Shown: positions 32,377 through 54,100 of the stretch, one piece after another
How the letters are laid out: every line of letters starts with the position of its first letter
Position numbering within the stretch: the stretch's first letter is position 1
NCBI GenBank assembly: GCA_018668635.1
Contig: JABJCN010000157.1
Span: 170 to 64,169 of the forward strand
Length of the DNA: 64,000 bases
Direction of reading: 5' to 3'
Source: Opitutia bacterium
GTDB taxonomy: Bacteria > Verrucomicrobiota > Verrucomicrobiia > Opitutales > JABJCN01
Position numbers and translations under genes: made by a program
The notes under the pieces: model-generated
The model's database searches: none
The model's input: only the letters and a program-made list of their open reading frames with translations
What the model was told of the DNA's origin: nothing

Positions 32377-33189
32377 TTAGCTTGGAATACCGACCTTTAA
32401 CAGGATCACGGTAACATTGTCTTTGCCTCCAGCCAGAAGCGTGTTTGAGACAAGTTTCTCTGCCGCACTAATCAATGGTTGCTTCGTCTGGAGGGCATCC
32501 AGGAGAACCTCTGTAATCTCATGATCCCAGAGTTCCTCATTCAGTCCATCAGAACAAAGGAGATAAAGGTCACCATCAGCCATCTCAAAGGAAGCAATTT
32601 CAGGGTCCAGACCCTCCGGGTGAGACCCAACTGCCTGATCAATTACATTACGGTGTGGATGAGTGCGGGACTCTTCAATCGTTATCCTGCCTTCCCTTAA
32701 GAGACGGCCAACAGGAGACTGGTCTTTGCTCAATTGCTCCAGTGTATTGTTTCGCAATCTATAAACGCGACTATCTCCCACATTGGCGAGCGTTAACTCA
32801 TTCCCCTTAAGCCAGCACAAAGTGAGGGTTGTCCCCATTCCAGCAAGGCTGGGGTCAGCATCGGTTTTCCGAAGGATACGGAAGTTGGCTTCATCAACAA
32901 TATTACGCAGAGGCTCTTCTTCCGGGTTTGGGCAGGTAGATCCTCCTGCCAACTCAAGGATGCTTTCGCGAAGAATACTGCTCGCTAATTCACCGCCTTG
33001 CACACCACCCATGCCATCCGCCACAACGGCAATGTATCCTCGGGATGAAATCTCACTGGACCCCTTGTCAGGCAATTCATCAGCACCATCCTCCCCGACG
33101 CTTAACATGACCATCGAGTCCTCGTTGTTTTTGCGAATATTACCAACGTGTGAAACGCAGGCCCAAGTGCAGGTAGACAGGTGGTTCAA
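32377..33189 (-). CDS. PP2C-family Ser/Thr protein phosphatase
   Basis: GNIRKNNEDS, VADGMGG, LCSDGL, GGKDNVTVILL. It lies 8 nt upstream of the kinase gene and overlaps the TIM-barrel gene stop by 4 nt. Confidence 0.85.
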   Translation of the reverse strand: MNHLSTCTWACVSHVGNIRKNNEDSMVMLSVGEDGADELPDKGSSEISSRGYIAVVADGMGGVQGGELASSILRESILELAGGSTCPNPEEEPLRNIVDEANFRILRKTDADPSLAGMGTTLTLCWLKGNELTLANVGDSRVYRLRNNTLEQLSKDQSPVGRLLREGRITIEESRTHPHRNVIDQAVGSHPEGLDPEIASFEMADGDLYLLCSDGLNEELWDHEITEVLLDALQTKQPLISAAEKLVSNTLLAGGKDNVTVILLKVGIPS

Positions 33190-35798: not shown

Positions 35799-36461
35799 AT
35801 GGGCAAGGTTCTGCAGATTCTTCAACCCTATGAAGCAACTCTGAAAATTGCTTACGATGATTACTTTAAACTCCTTTACCGGGCAAAACTTTTGCCCAAG
35901 GCGCGCCTTGTCGGTAATCATTTCATTGCAAGGAAAGTATTTCGTGCATCAGGACGTAAAACTGCGGTGCAAAAGATTGTTCAGTGGTTCTGGAAAAACT
36001 TTAAGGGGGAAGTCGGCCTCGCCCACAAGGTGCTCACCATTAATGACCCATACAATGAAGTTGTTTATGGGGCTGGTTTTTTATGCAATGATCCCTTAAA
36101 TAAATATCTGGATAAGGAGACAACAGTCAGGGTTATCAAACTTTCCAATGGAAAATTGATGCAAGAGGAACGGAAGGGGTCGATCCATCATCCCCCTAAT
36201 TCTGTTAAGAGGGTAAAGCGGAGGCGTAAATACAACAGGAATATTGCTCCTCGTGTTTCAATCTCTTCCACTGGTACACTCTATTACAGGATTACACTCA
36301 TCCCCCAGATTTCACGAGAAGGAATGATTATCCAGAAGCGTAAAATACAGAATATCCGCCTGGATGCACGTGAAGTCGATGATGCCTTAAAGGAGATTAC
36401 TGAGAGAGGTCTTGATCAAATCAACGAGAAAAATACACTTCGTGCATTCAAGGTGATTTGA
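35799..36461 (+). CDS. Hypothetical basic protein (orphan) in an AT-rich segment
   Basis: 220-aa ORF with no signal peptide, TM helix or motif I recognise. It is lysine/arginine rich (KRVKRRRKYNR). Coding status rests only on ORF length in an otherwise stop-rich AT-rich region. Confidence 0.35.
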   Translation: MGKVLQILQPYEATLKIAYDDYFKLLYRAKLLPKARLVGNHFIARKVFRASGRKTAVQKIVQWFWKNFKGEVGLAHKVLTINDPYNEVVYGAGFLCNDPLNKYLDKETTVRVIKLSNGKLMQEERKGSIHHPPNSVKRVKRRRKYNRNIAPRVSISSTGTLYYRITLIPQISREGMIIQKRKIQNIRLDAREVDDALKEITERGLDQINEKNTLRAFKVI

Positions 36462-36617
36462 TGAGAAATTTAAAACTCTTGTGATAAAGTTCGTGACTTA
36501 TGCTATTTAGAGTATAGATGGCACGTGTTTAAAAGCCTACAATACCAAAAAAACCTCTATATCATAACAAAAACCCAGAAATAAACATCTCAAATAAACG
36601 AACCCCCACCCGAAGAC

Positions 36618-37223
36618 GTGGCAAAGTCCCAAAAGAACACAAAACAATCCTCCAAGCGAAAAAATGCCAAGCCGGTGATTCACCCTCAGCACGGCGTCAT
36701 TCCTCCGGAACGCAACAAGGAACTTGTAGGGTTATTGATGAAGCATCAGCGACGAATTTTCTCATATATATATACTATGGTTCCCAATCGCGAGGACTCA
36801 GAGGATTTGCTTCAGGAAACTTGCCTAACAATTTGTGAGAAATTTACTGACTTTGTTGAAGGTACCAACTTCCTTGCATGGGCATGCCAAATCGCATTCT
36901 GGAAGGTTCGTGCAGCGCGCAAGAAATTTGCCACAGCCAAGGTTGTTTTCAATCAAGAGCTTATGGATACGGTCTCAGACACCATGTTCGAGATGGCAAA
37001 GGAACTCGATGTGCGGCACGAGTCCCTCAATGCCTGCCTACAAAAGCTTAATGAGCGGGATAGAACCATGATCATGACCCGATATGAACCTGGATGTAAT
37101 GCACAAACTGCATCTGATGTCTGTGGTCGTTCTATACAAGCAACATACAAGGCCTTGTCCAGGATTAGGAAATTGCTCTTCGACTGCGTTACATTTGAGC
37201 AGGCCGTTCGTGACAACATATGA
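36618..37223 (+). CDS. ECF-type RNA polymerase sigma-70 factor (Rhodopirellula/Verrucomicrobium family-like)
   Basis: Region 2: IFSYIYTMVPNREDSEDLLQETCLTICEKF...FLAWACQIAFWKV. Region 4: ERDRTMIMTRY...TASDVCGRSIQATYKALSRIRKLL. GTG start at 36618. Confidence 0.85.
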   Translation: MAKSQKNTKQSSKRKNAKPVIHPQHGVIPPERNKELVGLLMKHQRRIFSYIYTMVPNREDSEDLLQETCLTICEKFTDFVEGTNFLAWACQIAFWKVRAARKKFATAKVVFNQELMDTVSDTMFEMAKELDVRHESLNACLQKLNERDRTMIMTRYEPGCNAQTASDVCGRSIQATYKALSRIRKLLFDCVTFEQAVRDNI

Positions 37224-38956
37224 AACTTTCAGATAATGAAATCCTTGAGTTTGATGAATTGCTGAATTCAGTCTCAGAGGAAAGTGTAACCGAAGCTGAC
37301 AAGAAACGGCTTCAGGAATGGCTCCAGAACAGTAAGTCTGCCCGGCGGCGCTACATAAAGTTCATGGACATGAATGCCAGCCTGCATCATTATGCAGCGG
37401 AATTTCAGGGAGCCATACCCGAAGATGACCCTGAAGGATTTCGTTCCCCGACGCAAAGTGGCTCCAATATTCCTGATCACTTCCTCAAGACGGCACTCGC
37501 CGTAGCAGCAGCAATAGTCCTTGGCTTTGTCGCGCTAAACTTCCTGCCAAAAAAAGCGTCTCCTATTGATGATGAACAGGTAAACGCCGACAATCAACCT
37601 TTCGAGGGCAGCAAACCCGAAGCTTTTGCGCCCGTTGCAAACAGTGTTGCAGTGCTGACCCAGGCATGGGGTCTTGAATGGGACAACCCGGATGCCACCG
37701 TCAAAGTAGGGGATGAACTCTCTGTCAGCTCTCTGGAGTTCTCAGCAGGTCTGGCACAACTGGAATTCAAGGATGGGGCTATCGTTATTGTTGAAGGGCC
37801 TGCCAAGTTGCAACTGAAGGGGGCCAATGAAGTTTTCTGTTACTTCGGTAAAATCCGGGCCATGGTTCCGGAGCAGGCTTCCGGATTTCAGGTCGGTACA
37901 CCCAGTCTGGATGTTGTGGATCTGGGCACTGAGTTTGGCATGAGCGTTGGCGAGAACGGCGAAATTGAAGTTGTCGTTTATGAGGGGAAGGTCGAATTGC
38001 ATATTGATGAGGCCATGCCTGGCGCTGAGCCTGAAATTGAGGTTTCAGAGCTCAATGCGGGGGAAAGTGTTTTTCTGGACCCCAAGGGGTTGCTCAAGAA
38101 GATGGATATGCCCAAGAGTCAGTTCATCGGAACTGCAGGACTCGCGGAACGCTCCATCGAGGAACTTCAGGCCCGCTACTCACGATGGGTCGAGGCCAGT
38201 CAGGAATTGAGGGAGGATGAGCGTTTGTTGCTTTATTACACATTTGACAACGAGCAGGCATGGTCCCGTACCGTTACCGATCAGGCGCTCAACAAATCCC
38301 GCAGCTCCAATGGGGCACTCATCGGATGCATGTGGGTGCAGGGACGCTGGCCCGGGAAGGGCGCCCTGCAGTTCAAACGCAGTAGTGACCGTGTGAGGAT
38401 TGATATTCCGGGGGAACAGGACTCAATTACTTTTACCGCCTGGGTCCGACTCGACCGCCTGAATACGACCACCTCATCCCTGTTTCTTTGCAGTAATGAA
38501 AACCCCGGGAGTCCCCATTGGCAGATTGACAACGAAGGTCGACTCATGCTTGCAGTAAGGAAGCCTGCACGCCGCAAACCAATCAACCCCCGCACCAGGA
38601 TAACCAAGACAGAACCCTGGGTTTATCAAACCGACAAGGTACTCAATAACCGACTGGGAGAATGGGCGCATCTTGTTACCGTATATGATCGCCAGAAGGG
38701 GAGTGTAAGCCACTACATTGATGGGCGAAAGGTTGCTGACCAAAAGATTCAGAATCGGGACCGCTTGAGCATTGAAAAGGCTGAGCTTGGCAACTGGCCC
38801 CGCCCGGACAAGGGTCATCCCGCAACTAATTTCAGGGGAAGCATGGATGAACTGGCCATTTTTAAGTCAGCTCTCTCCAAGGACGAAATCCTAGGCCTTT
38901 ACGAGGTTGGTCGCCCCAATGCTCTCCACGGCTGGGCCTCCCTTCGCAAGGACTAG
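37220..38956 (+). CDS. Anti-sigma factor: N-terminal anti-sigma domain, TM helix, FecR domain, C-terminal LamG (Laminin_G_3) domain
   Basis: The ATG overlaps the sigma gene stop (ATGA). TM helix: ALAVAAAIVLGFVALNFL. FecR-like region: LEFKDGAIVIVEGPAKLQL...DLGTEFGM...VVVYEGKVEL. LamG tail: WAHLVTVYD...GSMDELAIFKSALSKDEILGLYEVG. Confidence 0.75.
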   Translation: MKLSDNEILEFDELLNSVSEESVTEADKKRLQEWLQNSKSARRRYIKFMDMNASLHHYAAEFQGAIPEDDPEGFRSPTQSGSNIPDHFLKTALAVAAAIVLGFVALNFLPKKASPIDDEQVNADNQPFEGSKPEAFAPVANSVAVLTQAWGLEWDNPDATVKVGDELSVSSLEFSAGLAQLEFKDGAIVIVEGPAKLQLKGANEVFCYFGKIRAMVPEQASGFQVGTPSLDVVDLGTEFGMSVGENGEIEVVVYEGKVELHIDEAMPGAEPEIEVSELNAGESVFLDPKGLLKKMDMPKSQFIGTAGLAERSIEELQARYSRWVEASQELREDERLLLYYTFDNEQAWSRTVTDQALNKSRSSNGALIGCMWVQGRWPGKGALQFKRSSDRVRIDIPGEQDSITFTAWVRLDRLNTTTSSLFLCSNENPGSPHWQIDNEGRLMLAVRKPARRKPINPRTRITKTEPWVYQTDKVLNNRLGEWAHLVTVYDRQKGSVSHYIDGRKVADQKIQNRDRLSIEKAELGNWPRPDKGHPATNFRGSMDELAIFKSALSKDEILGLYEVGRPNALHGWASLRKD

Positions 38957-39162
38957 ATAAGTGGTACTACGTCAAGCCTTCGGTTTGGTTTTACAGTAGT
39001 TTTTTGTTTCCGTTCATCATTATGGTGAACCATGTCCATTTGGGGGACGGGAAACTTTGTGCCGAAATTCGTTGAATTCACTTGCGTATGTGCGGGTTTT
39101 AAGGTAAAGATATTTTATTCTTACCTATAATCATTTTCTGCCCACCCAAAATTCAATGACCC

Positions 39163-42100
39163 TTGGACGCGTTCTCTGGGTCATTCAGCCTTTTTTGCGT
39201 TAAAATGATTGAAAGCAGATGGCTCAACGTCTTGAATTACCGACATCATCTTTTGAGCATTCTCGCAATGCCTGCCTTTAAAAACAAAATCACAACTTCT
39301 TTCCAAAAGTTGTTGCCAATTGCATTGGCTATGATGCTAGGCACTACGCCTGCTTATTCGGATCTGACTGCTTACTACCAATTAGTCCTTGAGGAAGTAT
39401 CCTGGGCCGATGCGGTTGAAACCTCTCAGGAACGCGGAGGCAACCTTGCCACTGTTACAAGTCAGGCTGAATGGGATCAAATCAATGAGCAATTGGGAAC
39501 TAGCATCGATGGCCTAGACCTCTGGCTTGGTGGAAGAGCAGATCCTGAAGATACTGAGCAGGACCCCGGTAAGCGCAGGTGGATCTGGGTCACGGGTGAA
39601 GAATGGGATTATTCACGCTGGCGGAGACTGGAACCGGATGGCAACTTCGGTGTTCAGGACCGTCTTTTCATTAACGGTAGTCACCCAAGTGAAGGTGCTG
39701 ACCACAAGTGGAACGATCACCCAAACAAAGCGGTCGACCTGGCTTTTTCAAAATATGAGATCAAGGGCTACATCATAGAATTAGGTTGGGCATCCATTGA
39801 TGGCAATCTCAGATATGTGGGCTCCAAGTCCGGAAACTTATACATTTCAGTTACCGGTGGTCCTGCTGATCACCCTGGTGGCAGTCGCATGATGCGTCAA
39901 CCCGGGGACTTCAGTTTTACAAACCTGGTGAAGGGGTTCGAGTATACAATCATTGCCTACCTCGACACAAATTCGAATCAAAACCAGGACGAAGGTGAAC
40001 CCGAGGGACGATACGTTTACACACCGCACCTGCTAACCGAAGACCTAAAGGACATCACAGTCACGGTATATGACGAGAACAGTCCGCCCAATCCGTTGGT
40101 GCTCAATGGTCAGTCCATTCACGACAATGACGAGGTCGGCAAGGAAATCGGCATAGTCATTCCATCAGATCCCGACGAGGGACAGGAATTGATGGTATAT
40201 GTTATTGATCCCACCCACAAGTTTCGTGTCGACGGCAACAAGCTACTTATCACGACAACCTTCAATTCAGAAGAAATCCAATCACAACCGCTTGTCCTTC
40301 GCACCGTGGACGACGGTGGACTCTTTACCGACACACAATTTAACCTTTCCGTCCTTCCTCCCAACCGAAGCCCGACGATCAACACCCGTGAATCTGTCAC
40401 TATAGATGAGGACTCCTTCTTCCGCATGGCAACATCCGGAGAGAACATCCTCCAATTTGATGATGATGCGACAGGGAATGAGCAGGTGGAAGTTACATTC
40501 ACGGTTACAGAGGGAGGCATCTATTTCTTCAAAAACAACAATATCACCTTTACGGATGGCGAACCAGGCACTGGATACGTGAAATTCAGAGGCACTCTGG
40601 ATAATGTGAATGCCAGGATGGATCGTCTCACATACAACCCTCCTGAAGACTTCAACGGTCAGGTTACATGGACCATCGAAATCAGTGATCTCGGCAACCA
40701 CGAGGGAAGTGTTCCACTTACTGCGTCACACACAATCGATATCACCATTAATGCCGTCAATGACGCCCCGGAAGTCACCGTCCCCGAGGCCATTCAGAAC
40801 CTGCTGGAGGACAGCACCCTCACGTTTAATATAATCAAAGGGAACCCCATTACGGTCAACGACGACCCGGAGAATGACCAACCCATCACCTTTGAGATGA
40901 GTGTGGATCATGGCACCCTGACCCTTGGCAAGATCCGCAACCTTACATTCCTCACAGGGGCTGACGAATCTTCTCATATGGAGATAAGTGCCACCACCAC
41001 CGCGCTCAACTCCGCGCTGAACGGCCTGACCTACACCGCCCCCAGGGATTTCGACGGCACTGCCACCATTTCATTCCTCACCGCTGATAACGGCAATATT
41101 GGAAAGGGCGGGCCCAAGACTGCACAAAACTCTCTCGATGTCTCAATCCTGGCAGTCAATGATGCTCCCATCATCACCGGTCCCTCGCTGGTTACACCCG
41201 TTGAGGATATTCCTTTCAGCTTTGACGGTGAGGCAGATGCCCTGATCACGATCATCGACGACGCTGCCAACGAGGGTGACGACAACCAGGTTGGCAACGT
41301 CACCACCCAGCTCACCATCAATGTCGACCACGGCACTGTCCGCATGGGGCGTCTCAACGGCCTTACATTTCTTGAGGGCGACTCTGCAGGGGATAGCAAA
41401 CTGGTCATGACCGGCCCCTACAATCTCATGGTTCTGTCCCTTGATGGCATGACCTATACATCGGACAAGGATTACAATGGTGGTGATAGCCTCAAGGTCG
41501 AGTTCAACGACTTGGGGCACTTTGGCGAAGGGGGTGCCAAGACTGCCGCACATACTGTCCTCTTGGTCGTTGGACCCGCCAACGACCCGCCGACCGATGT
41601 CCTTATCGACTCCTCCTCTGTCGCGGAAAACAAGAAGGCCGGTACCTCTGTTGGCAAACTCAGCGCCGTGGACCCCGATGCAAATGACACACATACTTTC
41701 AAACTGGTGGTGCCTGCAGACGCCGGAGCACCACCATTCACCATCTCCGGCAACACCCTCAAGACCACCCGCGAACTGGATGCCGAGGATGAACCCCTCA
41801 TCTTGGTCCACATCGCCGCCACCGACAAGGCCGGTGCCACCTTTACCAAGACCCTCTGGATTCACGTCACAAATCTCAACGATGCACCCACCGGCATCAA
41901 TATCGACAACTCCGTCATCCCTGAGGAGGAACCCGCCGGCACGTTTGTCGGGACCCTTACCACTATTGACTCCGACGGCACCCTCGGTCGGGGACTCATC
42001 GGCTACTGGCCCTTTGATGACGGGCAAGGCATCTCCGTAGCGGACTACTCGGGGAACGGCAACGGTGGCACCATCAACAACGAGACACCCACCATGTGGA

Positions 42101-45100
42101 AACCCGGTAAAATCGGTACCGCCCTGGAACTCAATGGTTCCACCCGTCTTGTCGAGATCCCCCACATCCACAAGTATCTCATTGATTCCGGCACATTTTC
42201 CATCTGGTACAAGCACACCAATGACCAGGGGGCTCTTTTCTCCAAGGATTCATCCGGCTTCGATAACGGCGGGCATTTCTACCTGACCATGAATGCAAAG
42301 AAGCTCGCCGTTCGACTGCAGGGTATCAATACCCACAACAATCTCTCCATGAATGCCGCCTCATCGGTCCTGAACACCCGTAGCCAGTGGCACCACGCAG
42401 CATTCACCTTTGGCACATCCGGAATGACCCTTTATCTCGACGGTGAGATCATGTCCACCAATACCCATTACACCGGCGGCCTCGGTCAGTCCTCCGGCGG
42501 CAGCGGCAACGCTGAACCCATCGCAATCGGTGCCAATACTCTACAGAGCGGGGACAACACCCTCTTCCCGGCAAAGGAATACTTCAAGGGCAGTGTTGAT
42601 GAGTTCCGCATCTACGACCGCGCACTCAGCGACATCGAGGTCCTCGAGCTCATGGAGACCACCACCACCACCAATGACTTCCATGTCTACACGCTCGTTC
42701 CCGGGGTGGGGGCCGGGGACAACTCCTCATTCTCAATCGATGACAACCAACTTTTTACCAAGGTTCCACTCGACCATGAGGGTCGCGATGGTTACCACAT
42801 TCGCATTCGCACACAGGATTCCGCCGGTGAAACCTTTGAGCAATCCCTTCACATCACCACCACCAATGTCAACGACCCGCCGTCTGACATCATACTGACC
42901 CCCGATGCCTTTACCGAGAACCAGGTTGTCGGGGCCACGGTTGGACTTCTGAGTGCAATGGATGATGGCGGGATCGAGGAAGGCGTCGGTTCCTACCAGA
43001 TCGTAAACACAGCCATGGATTGGGAACAGGCAAACGCCAACGCGGAAGCCTTGGGCGGTCACCTTGCCATCATCACCAGTGAAGCGGAATGGCAAAAGGT
43101 TATGGAACTCCCCGGTCTAAAGCAGGGCCTATTTATTGGTGCCACCGATGAGGAGGAGGAGGGGACCTGGAGATGGGTCAACGGACAACCACTCGCCGGC
43201 GAGAACCGCCAACCCGATACATTTCATGCCTGGCTTGGCAGCGAACCCAATAACACTGGCGATGCCGAGCACTATGCCGTTATTTGGGAATGGGATCAGG
43301 CTTATGCCTGGAATGACACCGGCAATTCTTCAACCGGGCACATAGTCGAGTTCCCCGGCATCAGCTATCAACTGGTTGAGGGTGAGGGCGATACCGACAA
43401 CTCCCTCTTCACCATTGAGGGCAACGAGCTCAAGGCGGCCTCCGGGTTTAATTTCGAGACCAGGTCCGCACACAGCATCCGGGTCAAGGCCACGGATTCC
43501 GGGGGGCTCTCCCTCGAGAAAGCCATTTCAGTAACCATCACCGATGCCAACGATACACCGGTTGGCATCACCATTGACAACAACACCATCGATGAAGGGC
43601 TGGCCAAGGGGGCAACAGTCGGCAACCTCTCCGCCATCGACGAGGATGCCGGGGATACCCACACCTTCAGCCTGGTGGTGCCTGCAGATGGCGGAGCTCC
43701 ACCTTTCACCATTTCCGGCAAAACGCTCAAGACCACTGCCGTCCTCGATTTCGAGAGCCAGCCCACGCACGAGCTCATGGTCATGGTGACCGATGAGGCC
43801 CAGGCTTCGTTTTCCCAGGTCATCACCATCAATGTCAATGACACCAATGATCCGCCCACCGGAATCACCCTCGCACCGGCGGAGGTCGCCGAGGGGTTGC
43901 CAAGGGACACTGTTATCGGTACATTGACCGCAATCGACACCGATCCCGGGGACACCCACACCTTCCGCATCACCGGTGGCGCCGACAAGTCCCTCTTCAA
44001 CATCTCCGGCAACCAGCTTTTCACAAGGGAGGTGCTCGATTACGAGACCAAGGCCCAGCTCGAGGTCACCATCGAGGCCAGGGATGAAAGCAACCTCACC
44101 TTCGAGCAGACCCTGACCGTCAATGTGATCAACGCAAATGACCCGCCCACCGATATCACCCTGGAACCAACCACCTTTGCTGAGAACCTGGCCATCGGGA
44201 CCGATGTAAGCAAGTTGGCGCTGGTGGATCCGGATGGAAATGACGCGGGTAATGAGAATCCCACGACTTCTGCAAAATACGTCTTGGTCAATAAAACACT
44301 GACATGGAAAGAGGCCAAGGCTGAGGCCGAGAGCATGGGCGGTCATCTTGCCACTTTCAACTCCGAGCAGGAATGGGATGCCATGGTTGCAGAAGTTGGT
44401 CTCACGAACATTTCCAATGACAACATTTGGCTTGGTGCCACCGACGAGGTGGAGGAGGGCGTATGGAAATGGGTGACAGGGGAACCTGTTACCTACAATC
44501 GGTGGGACGAGGGCCAACCGGACGGGAAAACCAACCAGCACTATATGTTGATCTGGGCAGCTACGGGTGCCAGGTGGGATGATATGGAGTTGAATGGCTA
44601 TGGTAATGTGGCCCTCAGATACTTTCTTTTGGAACTGCCATCGACACCATCTTTCACCCTCACCTCCGGTTCCGGCGACACCGACAACTCCCTCTTCACC
44701 ATAGAAGGGGACCAGCTCAAGACGGCGGCGGACTTCAATTACGAGGCCCGGGACGAATACACCATCCGGGTCAAGGGCACCGATTCCGGTGGCCTGAGCA
44801 TTGAGAAAACCTTCACCCTCGACCTCACCAATGCCCCGGATGCGCCCACGGACATCCTGCTCAGCGAAAGTACCGTCGACGAGAACCTCAAGAAGGGGAC
44901 CCTGGTCGGGAACCTGGTCGCCACCGATGAGGATGCCGGCGAGAAGCACACCTTCAAGATGTTCAATGCCACCCTGGTTGCCAACCCGGACAACGCCCTG
45001 TTCACCATCTCCGGCAACCAGCTAAAGACCAACGACATCTTCGACTTCGAGACCAAGTCCAGCTACACCATCAACGTAGAGGTCACCGACGATGATGACC

Positions 45101-48100
45101 TCGTCTTCATGAAGGAGCTGACCATCGGCGTCAACGACATCAACGACGCACCGACCGGACTCACCCTTGCCCCCGCCGAGGTCGCCGAGGACCTACCCCG
45201 GGACACCGTCGTCGGCACACTCACCGCCGATGACCCCGATGCCGAGGCCACCCACACCTTCCGCCTCATCGGCGGTGACGACAAAGCCCTCTTCAACATC
45301 TCCGGCAACCAGTTGACCACCAAGGCCGTCCTCGACTACGAGGCCAAGCCCCGGCTCGAGGTCATCATTGAGGCCAAGGACAACGGAAACCTCACCTTTG
45401 AACAGACCCTGGTCATCAACGTCATCAACGTGAATGACCCGCCCACAGATATCATCCTGGACAATGACACCTTTGCCGAGAACCAGGTTGTCGGGACCAC
45501 GGTTGGACTTCTAAGTGCAATGGATGATGGCGGGATCGAGGAAGGCGTCGGTTCCTACCAGATCGTAAATACACCCATGAATTGGGAACAGGCAAACGCC
45601 AACGCGGAAGCCCTGGGCGGTCACCTTGCCATCATCACCAGCGAAGCCGAATGGGAGAAGATCAAGGAACTGCCCGGTCTGAAGCAGGGCCTTTTTATTG
45701 GAGCCACCGATGAGGAGGAGGAGGGGACCTGGAAATGGGTGGATGGACAACCACTCGCCGGCATGAACCGCCAACCCGATACATTTCATGCGTGGCGTAG
45801 CACCGACCCCAATAACTCGGACGATATCGAGCACTATGCTGTTATTTGGTACGATGACAGGGATCAGGTTTATTCCTGGGTCGATTTCCCCAATTCAACC
45901 GGGCACATAGTCGAGTTCCCCGGCATCACTTATCAACTGGTTGCCGGCAACGGCGACACCGACAACGCCCTTTTTATAATACAAGGGGACCAGCTCAACA
46001 CGGCCGCGGCCTTCAACTACGAGGCCCGGGATGAATACACCATCCGGGTCAAGGGCACGGATTCCGGTGGCCTGAGTATCGAGAAGGTATTCACGCTCGA
46101 CCTCACCGATGCACCGGATGTTCCCACGGAGATCCTGCTCAGCAACAACACCGTTGACGAGAACGAGAAGAAGGGGGCCATCGTGGGCAACCTCGGCGCC
46201 ACCGATGAGGATGCGGACGAGAAACACACCTTCAGGTTGCTGGACATCCCGGTTGATCCCGATCCCAACCAACCCGCCCCGGCACCGTCCGACAATTCAT
46301 TCTTTGCCATTTCCGGTACCACGTTGAAGACCAATGCCGTCCTCGATTTTGAGGCCAAGTCCGCCTACACCATCACCATCGAGGTCACAGACAAGGACAA
46401 GAGAACCTACCAGCAGGAGATCGTGGTGGGCGTCAACGACGCCAATGATGCCCCGACCGGGTTGACCATCGACCGGGACGCGGTCGCCGAGGGCCTGCCA
46501 AAGGGGACCGAGGTGGGCACCCTTCTGGCACAGGATCCTGATGCCGGGGACTCCCACACCTTCCGCATCACCGGGGGCAAGGACTACAAGCTCTTTTCCA
46601 TTGTCGACAACAAGCTCCTCACCAAGGAGGTGTTCGACCGGGAGGTGAAGGCTGCCTTCGAAGTAGAGGTCACTGCGACCGACAGCGGCAGGCTGATTGC
46701 CGAGACCCTGTTCAACATCACCGTGATCGACGTCAACGACGCCCCGACCGATGTCACCCTCGACAACGACACCATCGCCGAGAACCAGCCCGCCGACTCC
46801 ATCGTCGGCAACTTCACCCTCGTTGACCAGGACGGCGGTGGCGATCCCACCACCGGCGGATTGAGTGAAACGGGTGGCGTCAACCCCGGTACCGGTGGCA
46901 GTACATCCTTCACCCTTGCCGAGGGAGCAGGGGACACCGACAACGCCTCCTTCACCATCGACGGGGAGCGGTTGAAGATTGTTGCGCCATTGAATTTTGA
47001 GGCCAAGCCCCAGCACACCATACGCGTTAAGGCAACGGATGCCGGCGGGCTCAGCGTGGAGCGCAATTTCCTGGTCAAGGTCACCAACGTGCCGGAGGCC
47101 CCGGTTGCCATTGCCATCAGCAATGACAGCATCGCCGAGAACCTCAAGAAGGGGGCCACCATCGGCAAGCTGAGTGCCACCGATGAGGATGCCGGCGAGA
47201 AGCACACCTTCAAGTTGATCGATTCACCCGCCGGGGTGGGCAACGACAACGCCCTCTTCTCCATCTCCGGGTACAACCTGCGAACCAACGCGGTGCTGGA
47301 CTTCGATGCCACCCCGCAGCTTTCCGTCCTTGTCGAGGTCACCGACCGGGCCAAACTGACCTACACACAGGTGCTGACCATCAACGTCACGGACGCCAAC
47401 GACGCACCGACCGGGCTCACCATCGACCCAGTCACCATCGCCGAGAACCAGGCCAAGGGAACGGAGATCGGCACCCTGACCGCCATCGACCCTGACACGG
47501 GGGACACCCACACCTACTCCGTGGTCGGTGGCAAGGACAAGAAACTCTTTGCCGTCAACGGCGACAAGCTTATCACCAACGCCATCCTCGACTACGAGCT
47601 TAAGTCGGAACTGGACCTCGTCATCCGCGTGACCGACTCCGGCAAGGCCTCGGTTGACATCCCGCTTCCCATCACCGTCACCGACGTCAATGATGGCCCC
47701 ACCGACATCACCCTCGACAACGATACAATCGCGGAGAACCAACCCGCCGACACCGTGGTGGGCAAGCTCGCACTCGAGGACCCGGACGGGGCAGGTGGAG
47801 GTTCCGCCCCCGTCATCATCACCGAGGGGGTGGGGGAGAAGCTATGGGAATTTGAAACAGGGGATTATGTTTACTCCTCGCCCGCGATCGGAATCGATGG
47901 TTTAGTCTACTTCGGATCTTTTGACCGAAAGATCTATGCACTTGTTGGCCAGACAGGTATCAAAAAATGGGAATACGAAACGGGGGGGCAGGTTGAGTCC
48001 TCCATTGCGATCGGCTCGGATGGGACGGTCTATGTCGGGTCTAACGGCGGCTCTGTATATGCTCTAGACGGCCAGACAGGTTCGAAAAAGTGGGAGTTTG

Positions 48101-51100
48101 TAACGGGAGGTCTGGTACGCTCTTCTCCTGCCATTGGGCCTGATGGTACCGTCTACATCGGTTCATTTGACAACAAGGTGTACGCTTTGAACGGTAAAAC
48201 TGGTTCTAAGAAATGGGAGTTTGTCACGGGAGGTTCTGTGAAGTCATCACCTGTGATCGGATCAGATGGGATGGTCTACATCGGGTCTTATGACAAAAGG
48301 ATATATGCTCTGGATGGCGAGACTGGAGAGAAACAATGGGAGTTCATTACGGGAGGGCGGGTGCAGCGGTCGCCGTCCATCGGATCAGATGGAACCGTCT
48401 ACGTAGGTTCATTTGACAACATAATATACGCGCTTAACGGGAAAACCGGTGTCAAGAAGTGGGCTTTTGAGGCTGGGGACATGCTGGAATCCTCTCCCGC
48501 GATCGGCTCGGATGGAATCGTCTATGTAGGGTCTGCTGACAAAAATGTCTATGCTCTGGATGGTCATACTGGGGTTAAGCTATGGGAATTCATGAGCGGA
48601 GGAAAGGTAATCTCCTCTCCCGCGGTCGGCTCGGATGGTACCGTCTATGTCGGGTCTGTTGATAAAAAGGTCTACGCCCTTGATGGCAAGACTGGCGCTA
48701 AACAGTGGGAATTTGTAACTGGAAACAGCATTAAATTGTCTTCCCCCACTATCGGTTCGGATGGCACCGTCTATATCGGGTCGCATGATAATAAGGTCTA
48801 TGCCATCCAAGGATCCTCCGGTCCTGCAAATTCCACCTGGCCAATGTTCGGTCAGAACCCGCAGCATACTAGTCGGATCGACGATAGTAGCTCAGGTTTC
48901 TCCTCCTTCACCCTCACAGCCGGTTCAGGCGACACCGACAATTCCTCATTCACCATCGACGGGGACGACCTGAAGCTGGCCGCACCGCTGAACTACGAGG
49001 CCAAGAGTAAGTACAGCATCCGGGTCAAGGGCACGGACAGCGGGGGACTCTCCATCGAGAAGGAATTCCTGATCGATGCCACCAATGTCCCCGAGGCGCC
49101 AACCGCCGTTGTTCTGGACAACGACACCGTGGAGGAGAACCTCAAGAAGGGGTCCACCGTGGGACGCCTGTCAACCACTGACGAGGACAGCGGCGAGAAG
49201 CACACCTACAAACTGGTCGATGCACCGGAAGGGGAGACCAACCAGAACGCCCGCTTCACCATTTCAGGAACCACACTGCGTACCAACGACGTATTTGACT
49301 TTGATGTCGTGCAGGAGCAGACGGTCCATGTCGAGGTGACCGACCGGGGCAAGCTGACCTTTGTGCAGGCCTTGACCATCCGGATCATCGACGCCAATGA
49401 CCCGCCGACCGGCCTGACCATCGCATCGGACAGCGTGGACGAGAATCAACCCAAGGGCACCGTGATCGGGGCCCTGACCGCGGTGGACCCCGATGCCGTG
49501 GATTCGCACACCTACTCCATTGTCGGTGGCCGGGACAAGAAGCTCTTCGCCGTGGCGGATGGCAACCTGGTATCCACGATGCCCTATGATTTCGAGACCC
49601 AACCCACGCTGGAGGTTGTGGTCCGTGTCTATGACAAGCGGAAGGCCCAGGGGGAATTCCCGCTGAGCATCACGGTGAACGATGTCAATGATGTGCCGAC
49701 CGACATCACCCTCAGCAACGACACCATCGCGGAGAATGAACCCACCGACACCATCATCGGGAAGCTGGTCCTTCTCGATTCAGATGGGGCAGGTGGCCCA
49801 ACGGTCGATCCCGTCAGTGGAAATACCCAGTTTGATTTCACCAACGGCCTCGTGGCCTACTATCCATTCAACGGAGATGCCAAGGATGAAACCGGCAACG
49901 GGCATGATGGCGTCGTCCACGGGGCAAGCCTGGGCCCTGACAGGCAGGGGACAGATACAAGTTCCTATTACTTTGATGGGGTGGATGACTACATCGATGT
50001 TGGGAGCCATCAACTGGACGGTGCTTTTACGATTGCCTCGTGGGTTTATCACGACGGGGTGAACACCCTACCATGGTTTGAGGCTGTTTATGCTACGGCC
50101 AATGTAGATATCGGTCTCTTCGCCCACCTACTTGAAGGGTCCATGTTCTCCAGACTCCATGTGGGAGGCAATAACGATGCCTATATCGACACAGATAAAA
50201 TGACAGTTCCCACCGGCAACTGGTATCACCTTGTTGGTTCATGGGACGGCCAGAACGCCAGTTTATACATCGATGGTACCGCAAAGGCTACGGCATTGAC
50301 CGGGTCAATGAATGCTCCGGTCCCCTCAAATTCATACTTGGGAAAGAATGGTTGGCGGGAAAACGAGGAGGAACTGGGTGAACACCTTAAAGGCCGTCTG
50401 GACGATGTGCGCGTCTACGGCCGTGCACTTTCAGTCGAGGAAGTTACCGCCCTCTACAATCTCGAAAGTGGGACATCTACTGGCACCACCTCCTTCGCCC
50501 TCACTGCCGGCGATGGCGATACCGACAACTCCTTCTTTACCATCGACGGGGACGACCTGAAGCTCGTTCCCTCAGCAGACTTTGAAACCAAAAACGAGTA
50601 CAGTGTGCGGATCAAGGGGACCGACTCTGGCGGTCTCTCCATCGAGAATATCTTCCAGGTCGGCGTGACCGATGTGAACGAGGCCCCCTTCAATGCAACC
50701 CTGGATATCACCCTTGTAGAGGAGAATGCACCGGCCGGGTTCCGCCTTGGCAAACTGGTGGCCCTGGACCCCGACCGCGGGGACAAGGTGGTGGTGACCC
50801 TTGCTGAGGATACCGACGAGATTGACAACGAGCATTTTCAGTTCAAGGGAACAAGCCTGGTTACGAAGACAGCCTTTGACTATGATACACAGCCGACCCG
50901 CACCCTTCGTGTGATTGCGACCGATTCCGGTGGTCTGAACACGGTGACGGACATCCTGATCAACATTGGCAACAAGAGTGAACCACCCACGGGCATTACC
51001 CTGGACGGCACCTCGGGCGAGGTGGTTTCCGTGGAGGAGAATGCCGCTACGGATACATTGGTCGGCAGCTTTACCACGGAAGACCCGGATGGAGCCGAGG

Positions 51101-54100
51101 CCTTTGTCTACAGCCTTGTCAGTGGGGATGGAGATATAGGGAACAAGAACTTCACCATCGATGCGGAGGGCAACATAAAGGTCAAGGCTTCCGCCAACCT
51201 GGACTTTGAAACATCCCCCGCCACTTCTGTACGGGTCCGCACGACGGATACAGGAGGGAACTCCCTGGAGATATCCTTTGCAATTGCCATAACCAATGTA
51301 AATGAACTTCCCCTGGGGGTCACGCTCGACAACGAATCCGTAATGGAGGGCCTGCCGAATGATACACTCGTCGGCACACTATCCGCGACCGACACGGACA
51401 GCGGGGATTCCCACACCTTCACCCTGGTGGACGGGGCTGGAGGCACCCACAATGACCTGTTCAAGATTGTTGGTGATGAGCTCCAGGTTGCACAGTTGAT
51501 TTCCGGCAAGACAACCCCGGTGGCCAGCATACTGGTCCGGGTGACGGATGCCGGTGGCCTTACATTCAATCAGGCATTATCCATAACCATAACCGATGCC
51601 CCGGATGCGCCAACCGGTATCAACCTGGATGGCAACTCAATCAAGAAGTATGAGCGCACCGGTACATTGATCGGCACACTGACCGCTGTCGATGGTGATG
51701 AGGATGACAGCCACACCTTTGCACTGGTCAGTGGTGCAGCCGGGACCAACAACGAGCTTTTCTTTATCGATGGGGATCAACTGGTCTCCAACCACATGTT
51801 CGATGACACTGCTGCAGCCTCCTACAAGATCAATGTGGAGGTGACGGACAGCGCGGACCTCACTTTTGTAAAGACCTTCACCATCACCATCATTAACGCT
51901 GCCAACCCCGGTGGACACCTGGTCGATGTGACCAAGATTCCCGTGGATGGCGGACTGGTGGCCGGTGCCGGGTACTACACCGATGGTGAAGCCGTGAGCC
52001 TTGTCGTGAAAAACAGCCCGGGCTACACCTTCTCCGGTCACAGCGGTGACGTGGCGGGAGGTTTCTCCGCTGAAAACCCGCTGGAGTTTGATGCGGATGG
52101 GAACAAGGACATCATCACCAGCTTCACTCAGGGGTATCACAAGGTTGTGGTTGGCGTGACTCCGGAGCGTCATGGTTATGCCTGGGGCGGAGGCAGTATC
52201 CAGCATGGTACCGAGATCACTGTCCAGGCCAAGGAACTTGACCCGAAATACGGCTGTGTCTTCACCCACTGGAGTATCAACGGGGTTGACCAACCCGTGG
52301 ATGAATCGAGCCCGCTTGTCCTGAAGGTGACCGTGGATCGCACCCTTCGTGTTCTTGCCCACTTTGACTACGGCCTGCCGGATTCCATGAAACTGGTTCC
52401 CTCTGGCAACTTTTCACAGGGCGATGCCCGCTACCATGGGGAGAAACCGGTCATCACCCCGCTGGTCAGTGCATTCTATATGGATGAGCATGAGACCTCC
52501 AAGAAGGATTTCTATGATGTCTTCAACTGGTCAATCCAGCAGGAGACCCCGTACAGCTTCATGTTTGATCCTACCGTTGTCAACGGGCGCAACCGGGCCC
52601 ACATCGATGGTGGATACAAGGATGATTTCCCCATCACGGCCATTACCTGGCTGGATGCCATTGCATTTGCCAATGCCCTTTCTGAAATGGAGGAGTTGAC
52701 CCCCGTATACTACGAGGATGCTGCAAGGACCACGGTCTTCCGTGGCCGCAAGCGTGACAAGAATGCGGATGCCGGGAATGAGGAGAGCCACCTCGGGCAA
52801 AAAATTTATGAATCCAATGTGGACTGGCGGGCCAAGGGGTATCGCCTTCCCACAGAATCGGAATGGGAGAAGGCGGCTCGCGGCGGTGTTGCAGGACTCA
52901 CCTATGCCAACAGCAACACGCTGGACTCCAAGTTTACCCATTATGACCAGGATACCATAATCCGCAGTCTGCGATCGGTGGGCAGCCTGGAACCCAATGG
53001 CTTTGGCCTTTATGACATGAACGGCAATGCATGGGAGATGTGCTGGGACTGGCACTGGAAGAACTGGTATTTTGAAGCGGATGCATCCGCCAAGGACCCC
53101 AAGGGTCCAGATATGTCTGACAAGACCATCTTCGATAAGGTCAATGCGGAAAACTGGCTGGTCCGTACGGTTCGGGGGGGTAGTGGCAATACCGACAAGT
53201 CCCGGATGCGTATTTCCTACCGCAAGGATTTCAACAAGACATGGTACCAATACGCCATAACCGTACGCCCGCTGGTTCCAGCACCAAGTGATCCGCGTGC
53301 CGAGGTGATCGTGGCGCTTGTCCCTGCACACCTTGGGTCTGTGACAGGTGGCGGTGTCTATGAAATTGGGGCGACTGCAACCCTCATTGCCACACCCGCC
53401 TCAGCCAATGCAAATTTCCTTCGGTGGGAGGATGCTGCCGGGAATAACCTGGGTACCGGCACCACACTTTTACTTAGCCTGAATTCAACCGGTGCAGATG
53501 ACGACCTGGACAAGGAGATCACCGCAATCTTTGAGGATACATCCAATCCCGATGACCAGCTCTATAGCCTCGAGGTTGTTGCTGATCCATTTGGCTCAGG
53601 TACAGTCCTTGGTGGAGGTGCCTACAAGCTCGGCGCAGAAGTCACCCTGACCGCCGTCCCTTCCAATGGTAATGATTTCGCCGGATGGTCCGGGGATGCC
53701 TCCGGCACTGAAACGGAGACCAAGATAACGATGGACGGACACAAGAAGGTCCTGGCGTACTTTGGGGATACATCCGAGGATTCCGATGAGGATGGTCTTT
53801 CTGACCTTTATGAAAAGAGCCTGGGTACCAATCCGGAAGACAAGGACACGGATGATGACGGTTTGACCGATGGCGAGGAGATGAACACCCATTCCTCCAA
53901 TCCGCTTCTGGTTGATTCTGATGGGGATGGTCATGATGACAAGACCGAGGCCTTCCATGGCACTACCCTGAATGATTCATCTGACTTTCCATTCCTCGAG
54001 CAGGACAGGATTGGACTCTGGTATGTATTCAAGGGTAAGGCATACGACATGTCTCCAGCCCGTAATCACGGAAAACTCAAGAGCGTCAGTTTTACCAAGG

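Follow-up and report, generated by a model that had tools for sequence, protein, structure and literature searches.

The 64,000-nucleotide stretch of marine Opitutae (Verrucomicrobiota) DNA analysed here, referred to below as the window, carries a block of three genes on the forward strand in which an ECF sigma factor gene is followed by the gene of an anti-sigma factor with FecR and LamG domains and then by a giant gene (Table 1). The sigma/anti-sigma pair is an ordinary member of a common, already catalogued family, and the three genes together represent one cargo variant within a design widespread in Planctomycetes and Verrucomicrobia (PVC); what is new here is the conserved giant-gene cargo behind the pair. 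Regulation of the giant gene by the pair is a plausible though unproven reading of the sequence comparisons, to which we assign a probability of roughly 0.55. The module calls rest on domain matches above curated cutoffs in open reading frames conserved at the protein level, and a chance statistic is not applicable to them. The gene calls, domain architecture and coupling-type overlap given in the preliminary description were all correct, and the coordinates agree with its placement of the pair on the same strand, 206–311 bp upstream of the giant reading frame.

Table 1. Features of the sigma/anti-sigma/giant-gene module and its upstream neighbour (window coordinates).
Feature	Position	Strand	Basis or remark
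220-aa conserved gene directly 5' of the sigma gene	35799..36461	+	Without Pfam/NCBIfam match
Sigma upstream region and leader	36462..36617	+	-10-like elements, C-rich stretch
ECF (group 4) sigma-70 gene	36618..37223	+	GTG start, 201 aa
ATGA, sigma stop/anti-sigma start overlap	37220..37223	+	Read from sequence
Anti-sigma gene	37220..38956	+	ATG start, 578 aa
N-terminal helical domain of anti-sigma, residues 1-65	37220..37414	+	AF2
Single transmembrane helix of anti-sigma, residues 87-107	37478..37540	+	Kyte-Doolittle, AF2
Beta-rich FecR domain of anti-sigma, residues 142-295	37643..38104	+	Pfam, AF2
LamG/concanavalin-A-like jelly roll of anti-sigma, residues 336-565	38225..38914	+	Pfam, AF2, Foldseek
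Intergenic region	38957..39267	+	Conserved blocks CACTTGCG, CCTATAAT, CTGCCCACCC
Giant secreted multidomain protein gene	39163..56655	+	Pfam; orthologous N-termini

Conservation of gene order in relatives, proposed earlier as a check, was found in all nine related loci that extend past the anti-sigma gene (L002, L003, L004/L005, L006, L007, L009, L010, L012 and L014), with at least three different upstream contexts flanking the constant block. Across these loci the anti-sigma proteins share 50–71% identity and the giant N-termini 43–75%, and the giant gene encodes about 5.4–5.8 thousand amino acids here and in all nine. The conserved three-gene order suggests that the pair may switch on the giant gene; because every orthologous locus is from a single marine lineage, part of the synteny is due to vertical inheritance. 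The 4-nt overlap described earlier is present in the sequence (context ...aacATGAaac..., with the anti-sigma ATG at 37220–37222 and the sigma TGA at 37221–37223), is also called in the orthologous loci, and probably couples translation of the two proteins.

The sigma factor is a member of the TIGR02989 "Rhodopirellula/Verrucomicrobium" family (159.5 bits, cutoff 124.55), and this PVC-specific model is its best match, the remaining sigma-factor models matching weakly. TIGR02937 (53.1, cutoff 42.9) and Pfam Sigma70_r2 (41.8 bits, cutoff 24) are exceeded as well, while Sigma70_r4_2 lies slightly below its threshold (25.4 bits, cutoff 25.7). The GTG start lines up with the (A/G)TGGC starts of the orthologues. 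TIGR02989 sigma factors paired with FecR–LamG anti-sigmas are catalogued in databases and, to our knowledge, have no experimental characterisation.

The AF2 model of the anti-sigma protein (overall pLDDT 84.6) runs from a helical N-terminal domain and a transmembrane helix through a beta-domain and a long helix to a jelly roll. The N-terminal domain (helices 5–19, 25–37 and 39–65, pLDDT 85–95) is matched by no Pfam anti-sigma-domain model and is presumed to bind sigma in the cytoplasm; it is conserved better than any other part of the protein, with 69–77% identity retained even in the clade whose anti-sigma proteins are 50% identical. A hydrophobic segment at about 87–109, the sole Kyte-Doolittle peak above 1.9, coincides with the AF2 helix and bears out the single membrane helix claimed earlier. 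The FecR and C-terminal Laminin_G_3 domains reported with it likewise stand, at residues 178–259 (30.5 bits, cutoff 24) and 400–557 (59.8 bits, cutoff 27.6); the former lies in an all-beta region modelled with pLDDT mostly around 90, the latter in the jelly roll preceded by the long helix (residues 305–331), and the peptide originally quoted for the protein was located at residue 540. Foldseek relates the jelly roll to carbohydrate-binding domains with a lectin-like fold, namely the lectin domain of trans-sialidase, the Hc domain of botulinum neurotoxin and the arabinan-binding domain 4 of AbnA (5hon, TMt 0.74), and the LamG domain is the presumed sensor. The FecR and LamG domains would face the periplasm, with the N-terminal domain in the cytoplasm. 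Across loci the sensor domains share 42–57% identity, against 81–89% for sigma and 69–77% for the N-terminal domain, a pattern that fits a fixed sigma/anti-sigma interface and an evolving sensor.

The giant protein has an ambiguous start codon, giving 5830 aa from TTG 39163, the first in-frame start, or 5795 aa from ATG 39268, and leaving a gap of 206 or 311 bp, respectively, to the anti-sigma gene. Behind a signal-peptide-like N-terminal segment, Pfam identifies Lectin_C, 12 matched Cadherin stretches, three Laminin_G_3 stretches, PQQ-type beta-propellers, FGE-sulfatase, Ig/I-set and TSP3_bac. The threefold occurrence of LamG noted previously is recovered, and the three motifs quoted for it lie at residues 1110, 3711 and 5093 when numbering starts at ATG 39268.

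Taken as a presumed cargo and target of the pair, the giant gene could be controlled as follows. Sigma and the single-pass anti-sigma would be made together through the ATGA overlap, and the N-terminal helical domain would sequester sigma in the cytoplasm. A cue from outside the cytoplasm, for which a glycan or other surface ligand of the LamG domain is the most plausible candidate, would inactivate the anti-sigma, possibly through regulated proteolysis by analogy with other single-pass anti-sigmas. The freed sigma would then raise transcription of the 17-kb gene, and with it production of the secreted lectin/cadherin/LamG/propeller/Ig protein; the two routes considered are read-through of the sigma operon and a promoter within the 206–311-bp spacer.

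Among the candidates scored, the anti-sigma has 561 homologous matches (E<=1e-5) in Planctomycetes and Verrucomicrobia, with the same length, overlap and FecR plus Laminin_G_3 architecture. The 4-nt overlap recurs in the paralogous loci L008, L017 and L019; L018 is the exception, its genes abutting without overlap. The module described here shares with TIGR02989 pairs of PVC bacteria a same-strand cargo after the pair, but in place of the giant gene PSCyt2/PSD1 is the usual occupant of that slot (five of the six paralogous modules examined, DUF1501 following in four). The spacer also differs: it measures 136–340 bp here and in the orthologues. Of the five cargo-bearing paralogous modules, four have pair and cargo overlapping by up to 47 bp or separated by no more than about 100 bp, an arrangement suggestive of an operon, and the first module of L019 has a gap of about 1 kb. 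The longer spacer suggests a separate transcription unit for the giant gene.

Three conserved blocks mark this spacer, CACTTGCG (39079–39086), CCTATAAT (39124–39131) with a perfect TATAAT inside it (39126–39131), and CTGCCCACCC (39138–39147). Five loci have a constant 39 nt between the first two, compared with 43 nt in this module, and CTTGC occurs in 10 of 11 intergenic regions, compared with a mean of 2.4 and a maximum of 7 in shuffles. These blocks, putative functional elements, look like a housekeeping -10 element with CACTTGCG upstream of it, unlike the classical ECF AAC...CGT. An Rfam search of the spacer gave no match, and a terminator scan between the anti-sigma and giant genes returned none that was convincing (hairpin z-scores -1.95 to +1.2). 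Upstream of sigma, the region with the putative promoter and leader contains the -10-like elements CTATTTA (36503–36509), common to L001–L003, L010 and L015, and TATAGA (36513–36518), as well as a C-rich CCCACCC (36605–36611). In L004, L006, L009 and L014 a conserved GTATAGCTTGCCAA block lines up with TATAG(A/C), and its counterpart in L007 is CATAGGCTTGCCAA; no canonical ECF AAC...CGT motif was recognised by eye in this region or its alignments. The comparison suggested at the outset, of the regions upstream of the sigma and giant genes for a common ECF -35/-10 motif, brought none to light: exact counting of bipartite motifs common to the two sets found none above shuffled controls, the best observed value equalling the shuffle maximum. 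With no shared motif and no convincing terminator, read-through and an unrecognised promoter are both possible.

These features bear directly on an alternative that we consider rather unlikely, namely that the genes are neighbours without a regulatory link. The pair would then control only itself or distant genes, the giant gene would be served by its own housekeeping-type promoter, and the order would reflect shared Opitutae ancestry. The TATAAT within a conserved block, flanked by further conserved blocks as is typical where a gene has a promoter and leader independent of its neighbours, agrees with this, as do the lack of a common upstream motif, a spacer much longer than in most cargo-bearing paralogous modules, and a paralogous pair (P0021) without same-strand cargo. 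Against such independence speak an order that survives in all nine loci down to 50% anti-sigma identity and through three upstream contexts, the recurrent same-strand PSCyt2/PSD1 cargo after paralogous pairs, and the outcome of the terminator scan. Improbable, in turn, is the sensing model of the preliminary description, in which the anti-sigma LamG domain would sense the ligand class of the giant protein or the giant protein itself, which would close a feedback loop. Laminin_G_3 does occur in both proteins and in the PSCyt/PSD1 cargo of L018, and across loci the giant N-terminus has diverged about as much as the sensor domains of the anti-sigma. The argument from the shared domain nevertheless fails, as essentially every homologous anti-sigma carries LamG irrespective of the downstream cargo; since more distant paralogues usually have PSCyt2/PSD1 and DUF1501 cargo, the domain characterises the family instead of matching the giant protein, and the cargo proteins of L008, L017 and L019 give no LamG match. 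Similarity between the anti-sigma and giant-protein LamG domains is generic, at superfamily level only (25–29% identity, E 3e-6 to 1e-4), and Laminin_G_3 is very common in secreted PVC proteins.

Classical signalling of the FecI/FecR/FecA type, in which a TonB-dependent outer-membrane transducer signals to the FecR-like protein and an uptake system is controlled, is hardly tenable here, although a FecR domain is present in the anti-sigma and names such as "ferric-dicitrate binding protein FerR" or "iron dicitrate transport regulator FecR" are given to its homologues in several sources. That system, known from Escherichia coli and Pseudomonas and classified as the ECF239-243 clade (PMC7826278), shares with the module adjacent, overlapping genes for an ECF sigma and a single-pass anti-sigma with a periplasmic FecR domain. 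It differs in its sigma family model, in an uptake system as cargo, and in the anti-sigma C-terminus, a transducer-contacting domain there and a LamG lectin fold here. Scans of about 40 ORFs of the window and the gene tables for related loci showed no TonB-dependent receptor, Plug or STN match, so the "surface-signalling circuit" proposed earlier does not hold in this sense. Bacteroides ECF-sigma/anti-sigma pairs linked to polysaccharide utilisation loci (PMC2709373, PMC4659458) likewise combine FecR-like anti-sigmas, glycan-responsive control and adjoining regulated genes, but their signal arrives via a SusC-like TonB-dependent transducer, a gene that the module lacks.

For the proposed regulation of the giant gene by the pair there are parallels in systems where the anti-sigma itself receives the signal. 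In SigV/RsiV of Firmicutes, the anti-sigma is the receptor of its ligand, lysozyme (PMC4183432, PMC5014341), a precedent for an anti-sigma that binds its signal with no partner in the outer membrane and then undergoes regulated intramembrane proteolysis, although the extracellular domain of RsiV is unrelated to the anti-sigma described here. SigI/RsgI of Clostridium thermocellum (PMC10328401, PMC6582324) senses polysaccharides through a membrane anti-sigma with an extracellular carbohydrate-sensing module, and its sigma regulates genes for a very large extracellular protein system, activation including anti-sigma proteolysis (PMC10328401). The logic is the same, but the likeness is one of design only: SigI is not an ECF sigma factor, RsgI has domains of other families than FecR and LamG, and the host is Gram-positive.

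The 220-aa gene directly upstream of sigma, whose membership is uncertain, may be an accessory to the module; Pfam and NCBIfam scans of it gave no match, and its single-sequence AF2 model is unusable (pLDDT 34). It is absent from that position in L004 and L007, and copies with 58–65% identity occupy it in L001, L002, L003, L006, L009, L010, L014 and L015.

The pair formed by the ECF sigma gene and the FecR-LamG anti-sigma gene probably serves as a dedicated regulator for the giant gene next to it, with a probability that we put at about 0.55. The anti-sigma factor has many homologues: 561 of the candidates scored reach E<=1e-5, and Laminin_G_3 is present in almost all of the best 120. Gene-context look-ups together with one metagenome scan provided an orthologue set of 15 loci with 50-87% anti-sigma identity, and tblastn was run with four queries, the sigma factor, the anti-sigma factor, residues 1-500 of the giant protein and the 220-aa protein encoded upstream; a scan of a species-level genome collection returned a single relative, an uncultured Opitutae MAG whose contig is truncated. 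Members of the 90%-identity cluster of the anti-sigma factor come from marine MAGs and are entered as "hypothetical protein [Opitutae bacterium]". The order sigma, anti-sigma, giant gene, all on the same strand, recurs in 9/9 loci extending past the anti-sigma gene (L002, L003, L004, which equals L005, L006, L007, L009, L010, L012 and L014, all from related marine Verrucomicrobia), so that the synteny which the preliminary description proposed to look for is present. The giant-gene orthologue is called as a single gene in L004 (5449 aa) and L006 (5466 aa), and its adjacency to the regulator across divergent genomes is the pattern of a regulon member. Sigma identity across loci reaches 81-89% where anti-sigma identity is 50-71% (tblastn).

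Three different contexts lie upstream of this constant order: an AP_endonuc_2 gene (with PP2C in the window and L006) followed by the 220-aa gene in the window, L006 and L009; a sulfatase, a 3-keto-disaccharide hydrolase-domain gene and a PQQ_2 propeller in L002 and L003; and a lactonase with a DUF7133 protein, the 220-aa gene being absent, in L004 and L007. The three-gene block has therefore survived rearrangements on one side. The 220-aa gene itself (35799-36461, + strand), directly upstream of the sigma gene, encodes a basic protein with no hydrophobic segment and no family match, and its single-sequence AlphaFold2 model (pLDDT 34) was unusable. It occupies the same position, at 58-65% identity, in eight of the ten other loci reaching that far (L004 and L007 being the exceptions), and could be a third module component or merely a linked gene.

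Paralogous modules, defined by 35-40% anti-sigma identity, carry other genes in the slot behind the pair, here called cargo. A same-strand PSCyt2/PSD1 gene follows the pair in five modules, namely those of L008, L017 (Gimesia algae), L018 (a Verrucomicrobiota MAG) and both modules of L019 (a Planctomycetes MAG); a DUF1501 gene comes next in four of them, and the fifth reaches the end of L019. The gap between pair and cargo ranges from a 47-bp overlap to about 100 bp in four of the five and is ~1 kb in the first L019 module, and another paralogous pair lacks any neighbour on its strand. We read this as a modular design in which a sigma/anti-sigma pair would be combined with a cargo slot, the giant gene being the cargo of one orthologous group. 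The two tandem modules of L019 (7435-17686) illustrate whole-module duplication.

In the sigma factor, Sigma70_r2 matches residues 39-93 (41.8 bits, cutoff 24) and Sigma70_r4_2 residues 135-187 (25.4 bits, slightly below the 25.7 cutoff) in Pfam, and the combination of regions 2 and 4 with no further domain matches in 201 aa is that of an ECF (group 4) factor. The profile TIGR02937 scores 53.1 (cutoff 42.9), and TIGR02989 (Sig-70_gvs1, [quoted passage not shown]) scores 159.5 bits (cutoff 124.55) over profile positions 2-158 of 158; the protein belongs to the ECF sigma family and to TIGR02989. A lysine- and arginine-rich N-terminal extension (residues 1-34, 36618-36720) provides ~35 residues before region 2. 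When the orthologues are divided by anti-sigma identity into a 70% and a 50% clade, this extension is alignable from residue 1 in the former and only from residues 20-23 in the latter.

The two genes of the pair overlap by 4 nt on the same strand (ATGA at 37220-37223), as had been described, and a stop/start overlap recurs in the orthologues and in paralogues L008, L017 and L019, the L018 genes abutting. This is the arrangement of a translationally coupled operon, the coupling itself being putative. The earlier account of the anti-sigma factor as one TM helix, a FecR domain and a C-terminal Laminin_G_3 domain also holds: FecR (PF04773) matches residues 178-259 (30.5 bits, cutoff 24), Laminin_G_3 matches residues 400-557 (59.8 bits, cutoff 27.6), and a single hydrophobic segment spans approximately residues 87-109. 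With FecR predicted on the extracytoplasmic side of one TM helix, the protein fits the FecR-like single-pass class. An AlphaFold2 (AF2) model from an 85-sequence alignment (mean pLDDT 84.6, pTM 0.67) resolves the parts listed in the table. The N-terminal three-helix domain, which matched no Pfam anti-sigma-domain model, is the best conserved part (69-77% vs 42-57% for FecR and LamG); this gradient would fit a conserved sigma-binding interface joined to a faster-evolving sensor and does not indicate the sensed ligand.

Features of the sigma/anti-sigma/giant-gene locus (window positions) and of the anti-sigma factor (residues)
Feature	Position	Strand	Description
-10-like boxes upstream of sigma gene	CTATTTA 36503-36509; TATAGA 36513-36518	+	conserved
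ECF sigma gene	36618-37223	+	GTG start, 201 aa (ORF list and sequence)
Anti-sigma gene	37220-38956	+	578 aa (ORF list and sequence)
Spacer block 1	39079-39086	+	CACTTGCG
Spacer block 2	39124-39131	+	CCTATWW, CCTATAAT in the window; resembles housekeeping -10 hexamer
Spacer block 3	39138-39147	+	C-rich, CTGCCCACCC in the window
Giant gene	39163-56655	+	C-type lectin, cadherin, three Laminin_G_3, PQQ-type propeller, FGE-sulfatase and Ig domains
N-terminal helices	residues 5-19, 25-37, 39-65		AF2, high confidence
Disordered linker	between N-terminal helices and membrane helix		AF2
Membrane helix	residues 87-107		AF2
Second disordered linker	residues 112-139		AF2
All-beta domain including FecR match	residues 142-295		AF2
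Long helix	residues 305-331		AF2
Jelly roll / beta-sandwich (LamG)	residues 336-565		AF2

Foldseek searches against the PDB match the jelly roll of the anti-sigma factor to lectin-fold domains with E down to 1e-11, including the helix-plus-lectin domain of trans-sialidases, the Hc domain of botulinum neurotoxins and the arabinan-binding domain 4 of the arabinanase AbnA (5hon, TM 0.74 on target), so that the C-terminal domain is folded like modules that bind carbohydrates or other ligands. A PDB search by sequence yielded nothing beyond sigma region 2 matches and weak matches at the LamG level, to sialidase lectin domains (E 0.018). The modelled lectin fold is consistent with a sensor and does not identify its ligand.

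The route by which the pair would act, which we infer in every step beyond the architecture, runs from the membrane to the giant gene. The anti-sigma factor would tether the sigma factor at the membrane through its modelled N-terminal helical domain; an extracytoplasmic cue acting on the FecR-LamG ectodomain would inactivate it, possibly with proteolytic release of the sigma factor by analogy with RsiV (PMC4183432) and RsgI (PMC10328401); and the freed sigma factor would increase giant-gene transcription. Anti-sigma factors of the RsgI/RsiV type, which have their own extracellular sensing module, are the closest design to the one in the window: RsiV binds lysozyme directly (PMC4183432, PMC5014341), and RsgI factors of Clostridium thermocellum relay polysaccharide-sensing signals in the regulation of the cellulosome (PMC10328401). 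Classical FecIRA signalling, to which the annotation of the FecR-LamG family as an iron-dicitrate regulator misleadingly points, is defined by a TonB-dependent transducer, whereas the pair here stands without one. No TonB_dep_Rec, Plug or STN match was found in roughly 40 ORFs scanned across the 64-kb window, and the gene tables of the related loci contain no TonB-dependent transducer; with its defining part absent, this mechanism is excluded in practice, and the "surface-signalling" of the preliminary description does not hold in the FecIRA sense.

The more specific proposal that the anti-sigma factor senses the same ligand class as the adhesin, or the adhesin itself, is improbable. It drew on the Laminin_G_3 domains present in both proteins, and the three motif peptides quoted for the giant protein are indeed located there, at residues 1110, 3711 and 5093. 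The argument from these shared domains is weak: LamG is a constant of the anti-sigma family, also where the cargo has no LamG match (L008, L017, L019), and the anti-sigma LamG shares only 25-29% identity (E 3e-6 to 1e-4) with those of the giant protein, the anti-sigma factor being far closer to its paralogues (about 35-40% over the full length). That the pair and the giant gene are simply neighbours with no regulatory linkage is less remote and still unlikely; the failure to recover a common promoter motif, discussed below, speaks for it, and the conserved adjacency across divergent genomes argues for a dedicated regulator. A broader scenario is possible but less likely than not, and we offer it tentatively: PVC bacteria would use a TonB-independent modular surface sensor, in which a FecR-LamG anti-sigma factor binds an extracellular glycan or monitors the state of the surface protein under its control and releases a TIGR02989 sigma factor, and in a marine Opitutae lineage the cargo would have been swapped from PSCyt2/PSD1-DUF1501 to a 5.8k-aa lectin/cadherin adhesin. 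If this is true, a costly giant surface protein would be made only with its substrate present, e.g., an algal sulfated polysaccharide or a host surface.

The spacer between the anti-sigma gene and the giant gene is 136-340 bp long in 11 loci. It is largely unalignable between the 70% and 50% clades, yet contains three ordered blocks (table). The word CTTGC occurs in 10 of 11 spacers (shuffle mean 2.4, maximum 7), and blocks 1 and 2 lie 39 nt apart in five loci, against 43 nt in the window. A site resembling CACTTGCG precedes the 220-aa gene (35764), and another, with two mismatches, precedes the sigma gene; as a regulon motif the word was rejected, since it is neither enriched in the window nor conserved upstream of the 220-aa orthologues, and a combined block 1-N-block 2 pattern matches the known site only. 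In L006 a perfect 10-bp inverted repeat, CTTCCAGCAA-N15-TTGCTGGAAG (11813-11847, approximately), spans the CTTGC block, with weaker counterparts in L009 and L012, and might serve a dimeric regulator as its operator instead of acting as a promoter element.

Sigma-upstream and giant-upstream regions were aligned for up to 12 loci, and bipartite motifs (exact 5-mer, 14-19 nt gap, 4-mer) present in both sets were counted in 11 + 11 upstream regions. The shared ECF -35/-10 motif anticipated by the preliminary description was not recovered, the best bipartite value being 2 loci per set, equal to the shuffle maximum; the test, made independently of any promoter consensus for this sigma family, is insensitive, and the result lowers confidence in direct control only moderately. 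Manual alignment found only housekeeping-like -10 boxes common to both regions, and no conserved AAC...CGT-type ECF motif was recognised in either set of aligned loci. The TATAGA box upstream of the sigma gene aligns with GTATAGCTTGCCAA in L004, L006, L009 and L014 and with CATAGGCTTGCCAA in L007. Three patterns read by eye (GGAAAC-N16-TTGAAT in the window, CAGC-N16-CTTGC and TTGCGA-N17-TAnnnn) were dropped as inconsistent across loci. L004 carries a near-perfect sigma-54-like site, TGGCACAACTTTTGCC (11892-11907), upstream of its giant-gene orthologue, which aligns with GGGAAACTTTGTGCC in the window (about 39052-39066) with the GG-N10-GC spacing kept; as a promoter (TGGCAC-N5-TTGC, one mismatch) it was set aside as lineage-specific or due to chance, no other locus coming within 3 mismatches. 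Downstream of the anti-sigma gene a scan found no intrinsic terminator, folding of the first 60-70 nt after its stop in 8 loci gave no significantly stable hairpin (z -1.95 to +1.2), and the spacers have no Rfam match at E<=1. Read-through from the sigma operon, an ECF-dependent promoter with an unrecognised consensus and an independent housekeeping promoter are three candidate routes to giant-gene transcription, and the sequence does not decide among them.

The giant gene lies 206 bp behind the pair if TTG 39163 is its start and 311 bp behind it if ATG 39268 is, in agreement with the preliminary description, and ATG 39205 is another start candidate. In orthologous giant proteins 30-40 residues precede the hydrophobic signal-peptide core, which makes the earlier TTG 39163 a possible start. 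In most loci 18-31 nt separate the conserved C-rich block from the start codon, a distance that would fit TTG 39163 in the window. CCCACCC, with only four plus-strand copies in 64 kb, occurs at 36605-36611 and 39141-39147 (+), 6 nt ahead of the GTG of the sigma gene and 15 nt ahead of TTG 39163; C-rich leaders (CCCAC, AATCCC) are also found in orthologous loci and before the window genes at 19347, 23725, 34238 and 61243, and may reflect a general property of leaders or of translation initiation in the lineage. At the other end of the giant protein (56300-56655), a TSP3-like DADGDGMSNLLEYALGSDP motif precedes a beta-rich tail of ~90 residues, and inspection by eye found no evident C-terminal hydrophobic anchor.

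PVC-focused studies (Jogler in 2012, Wiegand in 2020) reportedly describe planctomycetal ECF groups with FecR-like anti-sigma factors, and for this reason the FecR-LamG architecture is not regarded as new. Our literature search found no description of FecR-LamG anti-sigma factors or of the TIGR02989 sigma family in PVC bacteria, and the 2021 ECF re-classification discusses FecR-like anti-sigma factors only for the FecI-like clade ECF239-243 and ECF267 (PMC7826278). The family to which the pair belongs as an ordinary member is large, catalogued and, to our knowledge, experimentally untouched; the locus is unexceptional, and the pair is not expected to surprise specialists. What is new is modest, namely the conserved tie of one orthologous group to a giant lectin/cadherin gene and the interchangeable cargo slot. 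The FecR-LamG anti-sigma family of PVC bacteria is very abundant and, in the loci compared, comes with various cargo and no TonB-dependent transducer, and it is usefully framed in these terms. Marine Verrucomicrobia and Planctomycetes commonly have giant adhesin-like genes, and a conserved pair before such a gene offers a concrete, practical handle on the regulation of giant PVC surface proteins.

The surroundings are those of a typical PVC segment, with five sulfatase genes, DUF1501 and PSCyt1/PSCyt2/PSD1 genes, 3-keto-disaccharide hydrolase-domain proteins and a BspA-type LRR protein. The DUF1501 gene (56738-58129, - strand) and the PSCyt1/PSCyt2/PSD1 gene (58141-61215, -), of the kind that forms the usual same-strand cargo of the paralogous modules in L008, L017, L018 and L019, converge here on the 3' end of the giant gene. 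A Ser/Thr kinase gene (30041-32368, -), followed by a PP2C phosphatase gene (32377-33189, -), encodes a C-terminal FGE-sulfatase domain, which the kinase has in common with the giant protein.
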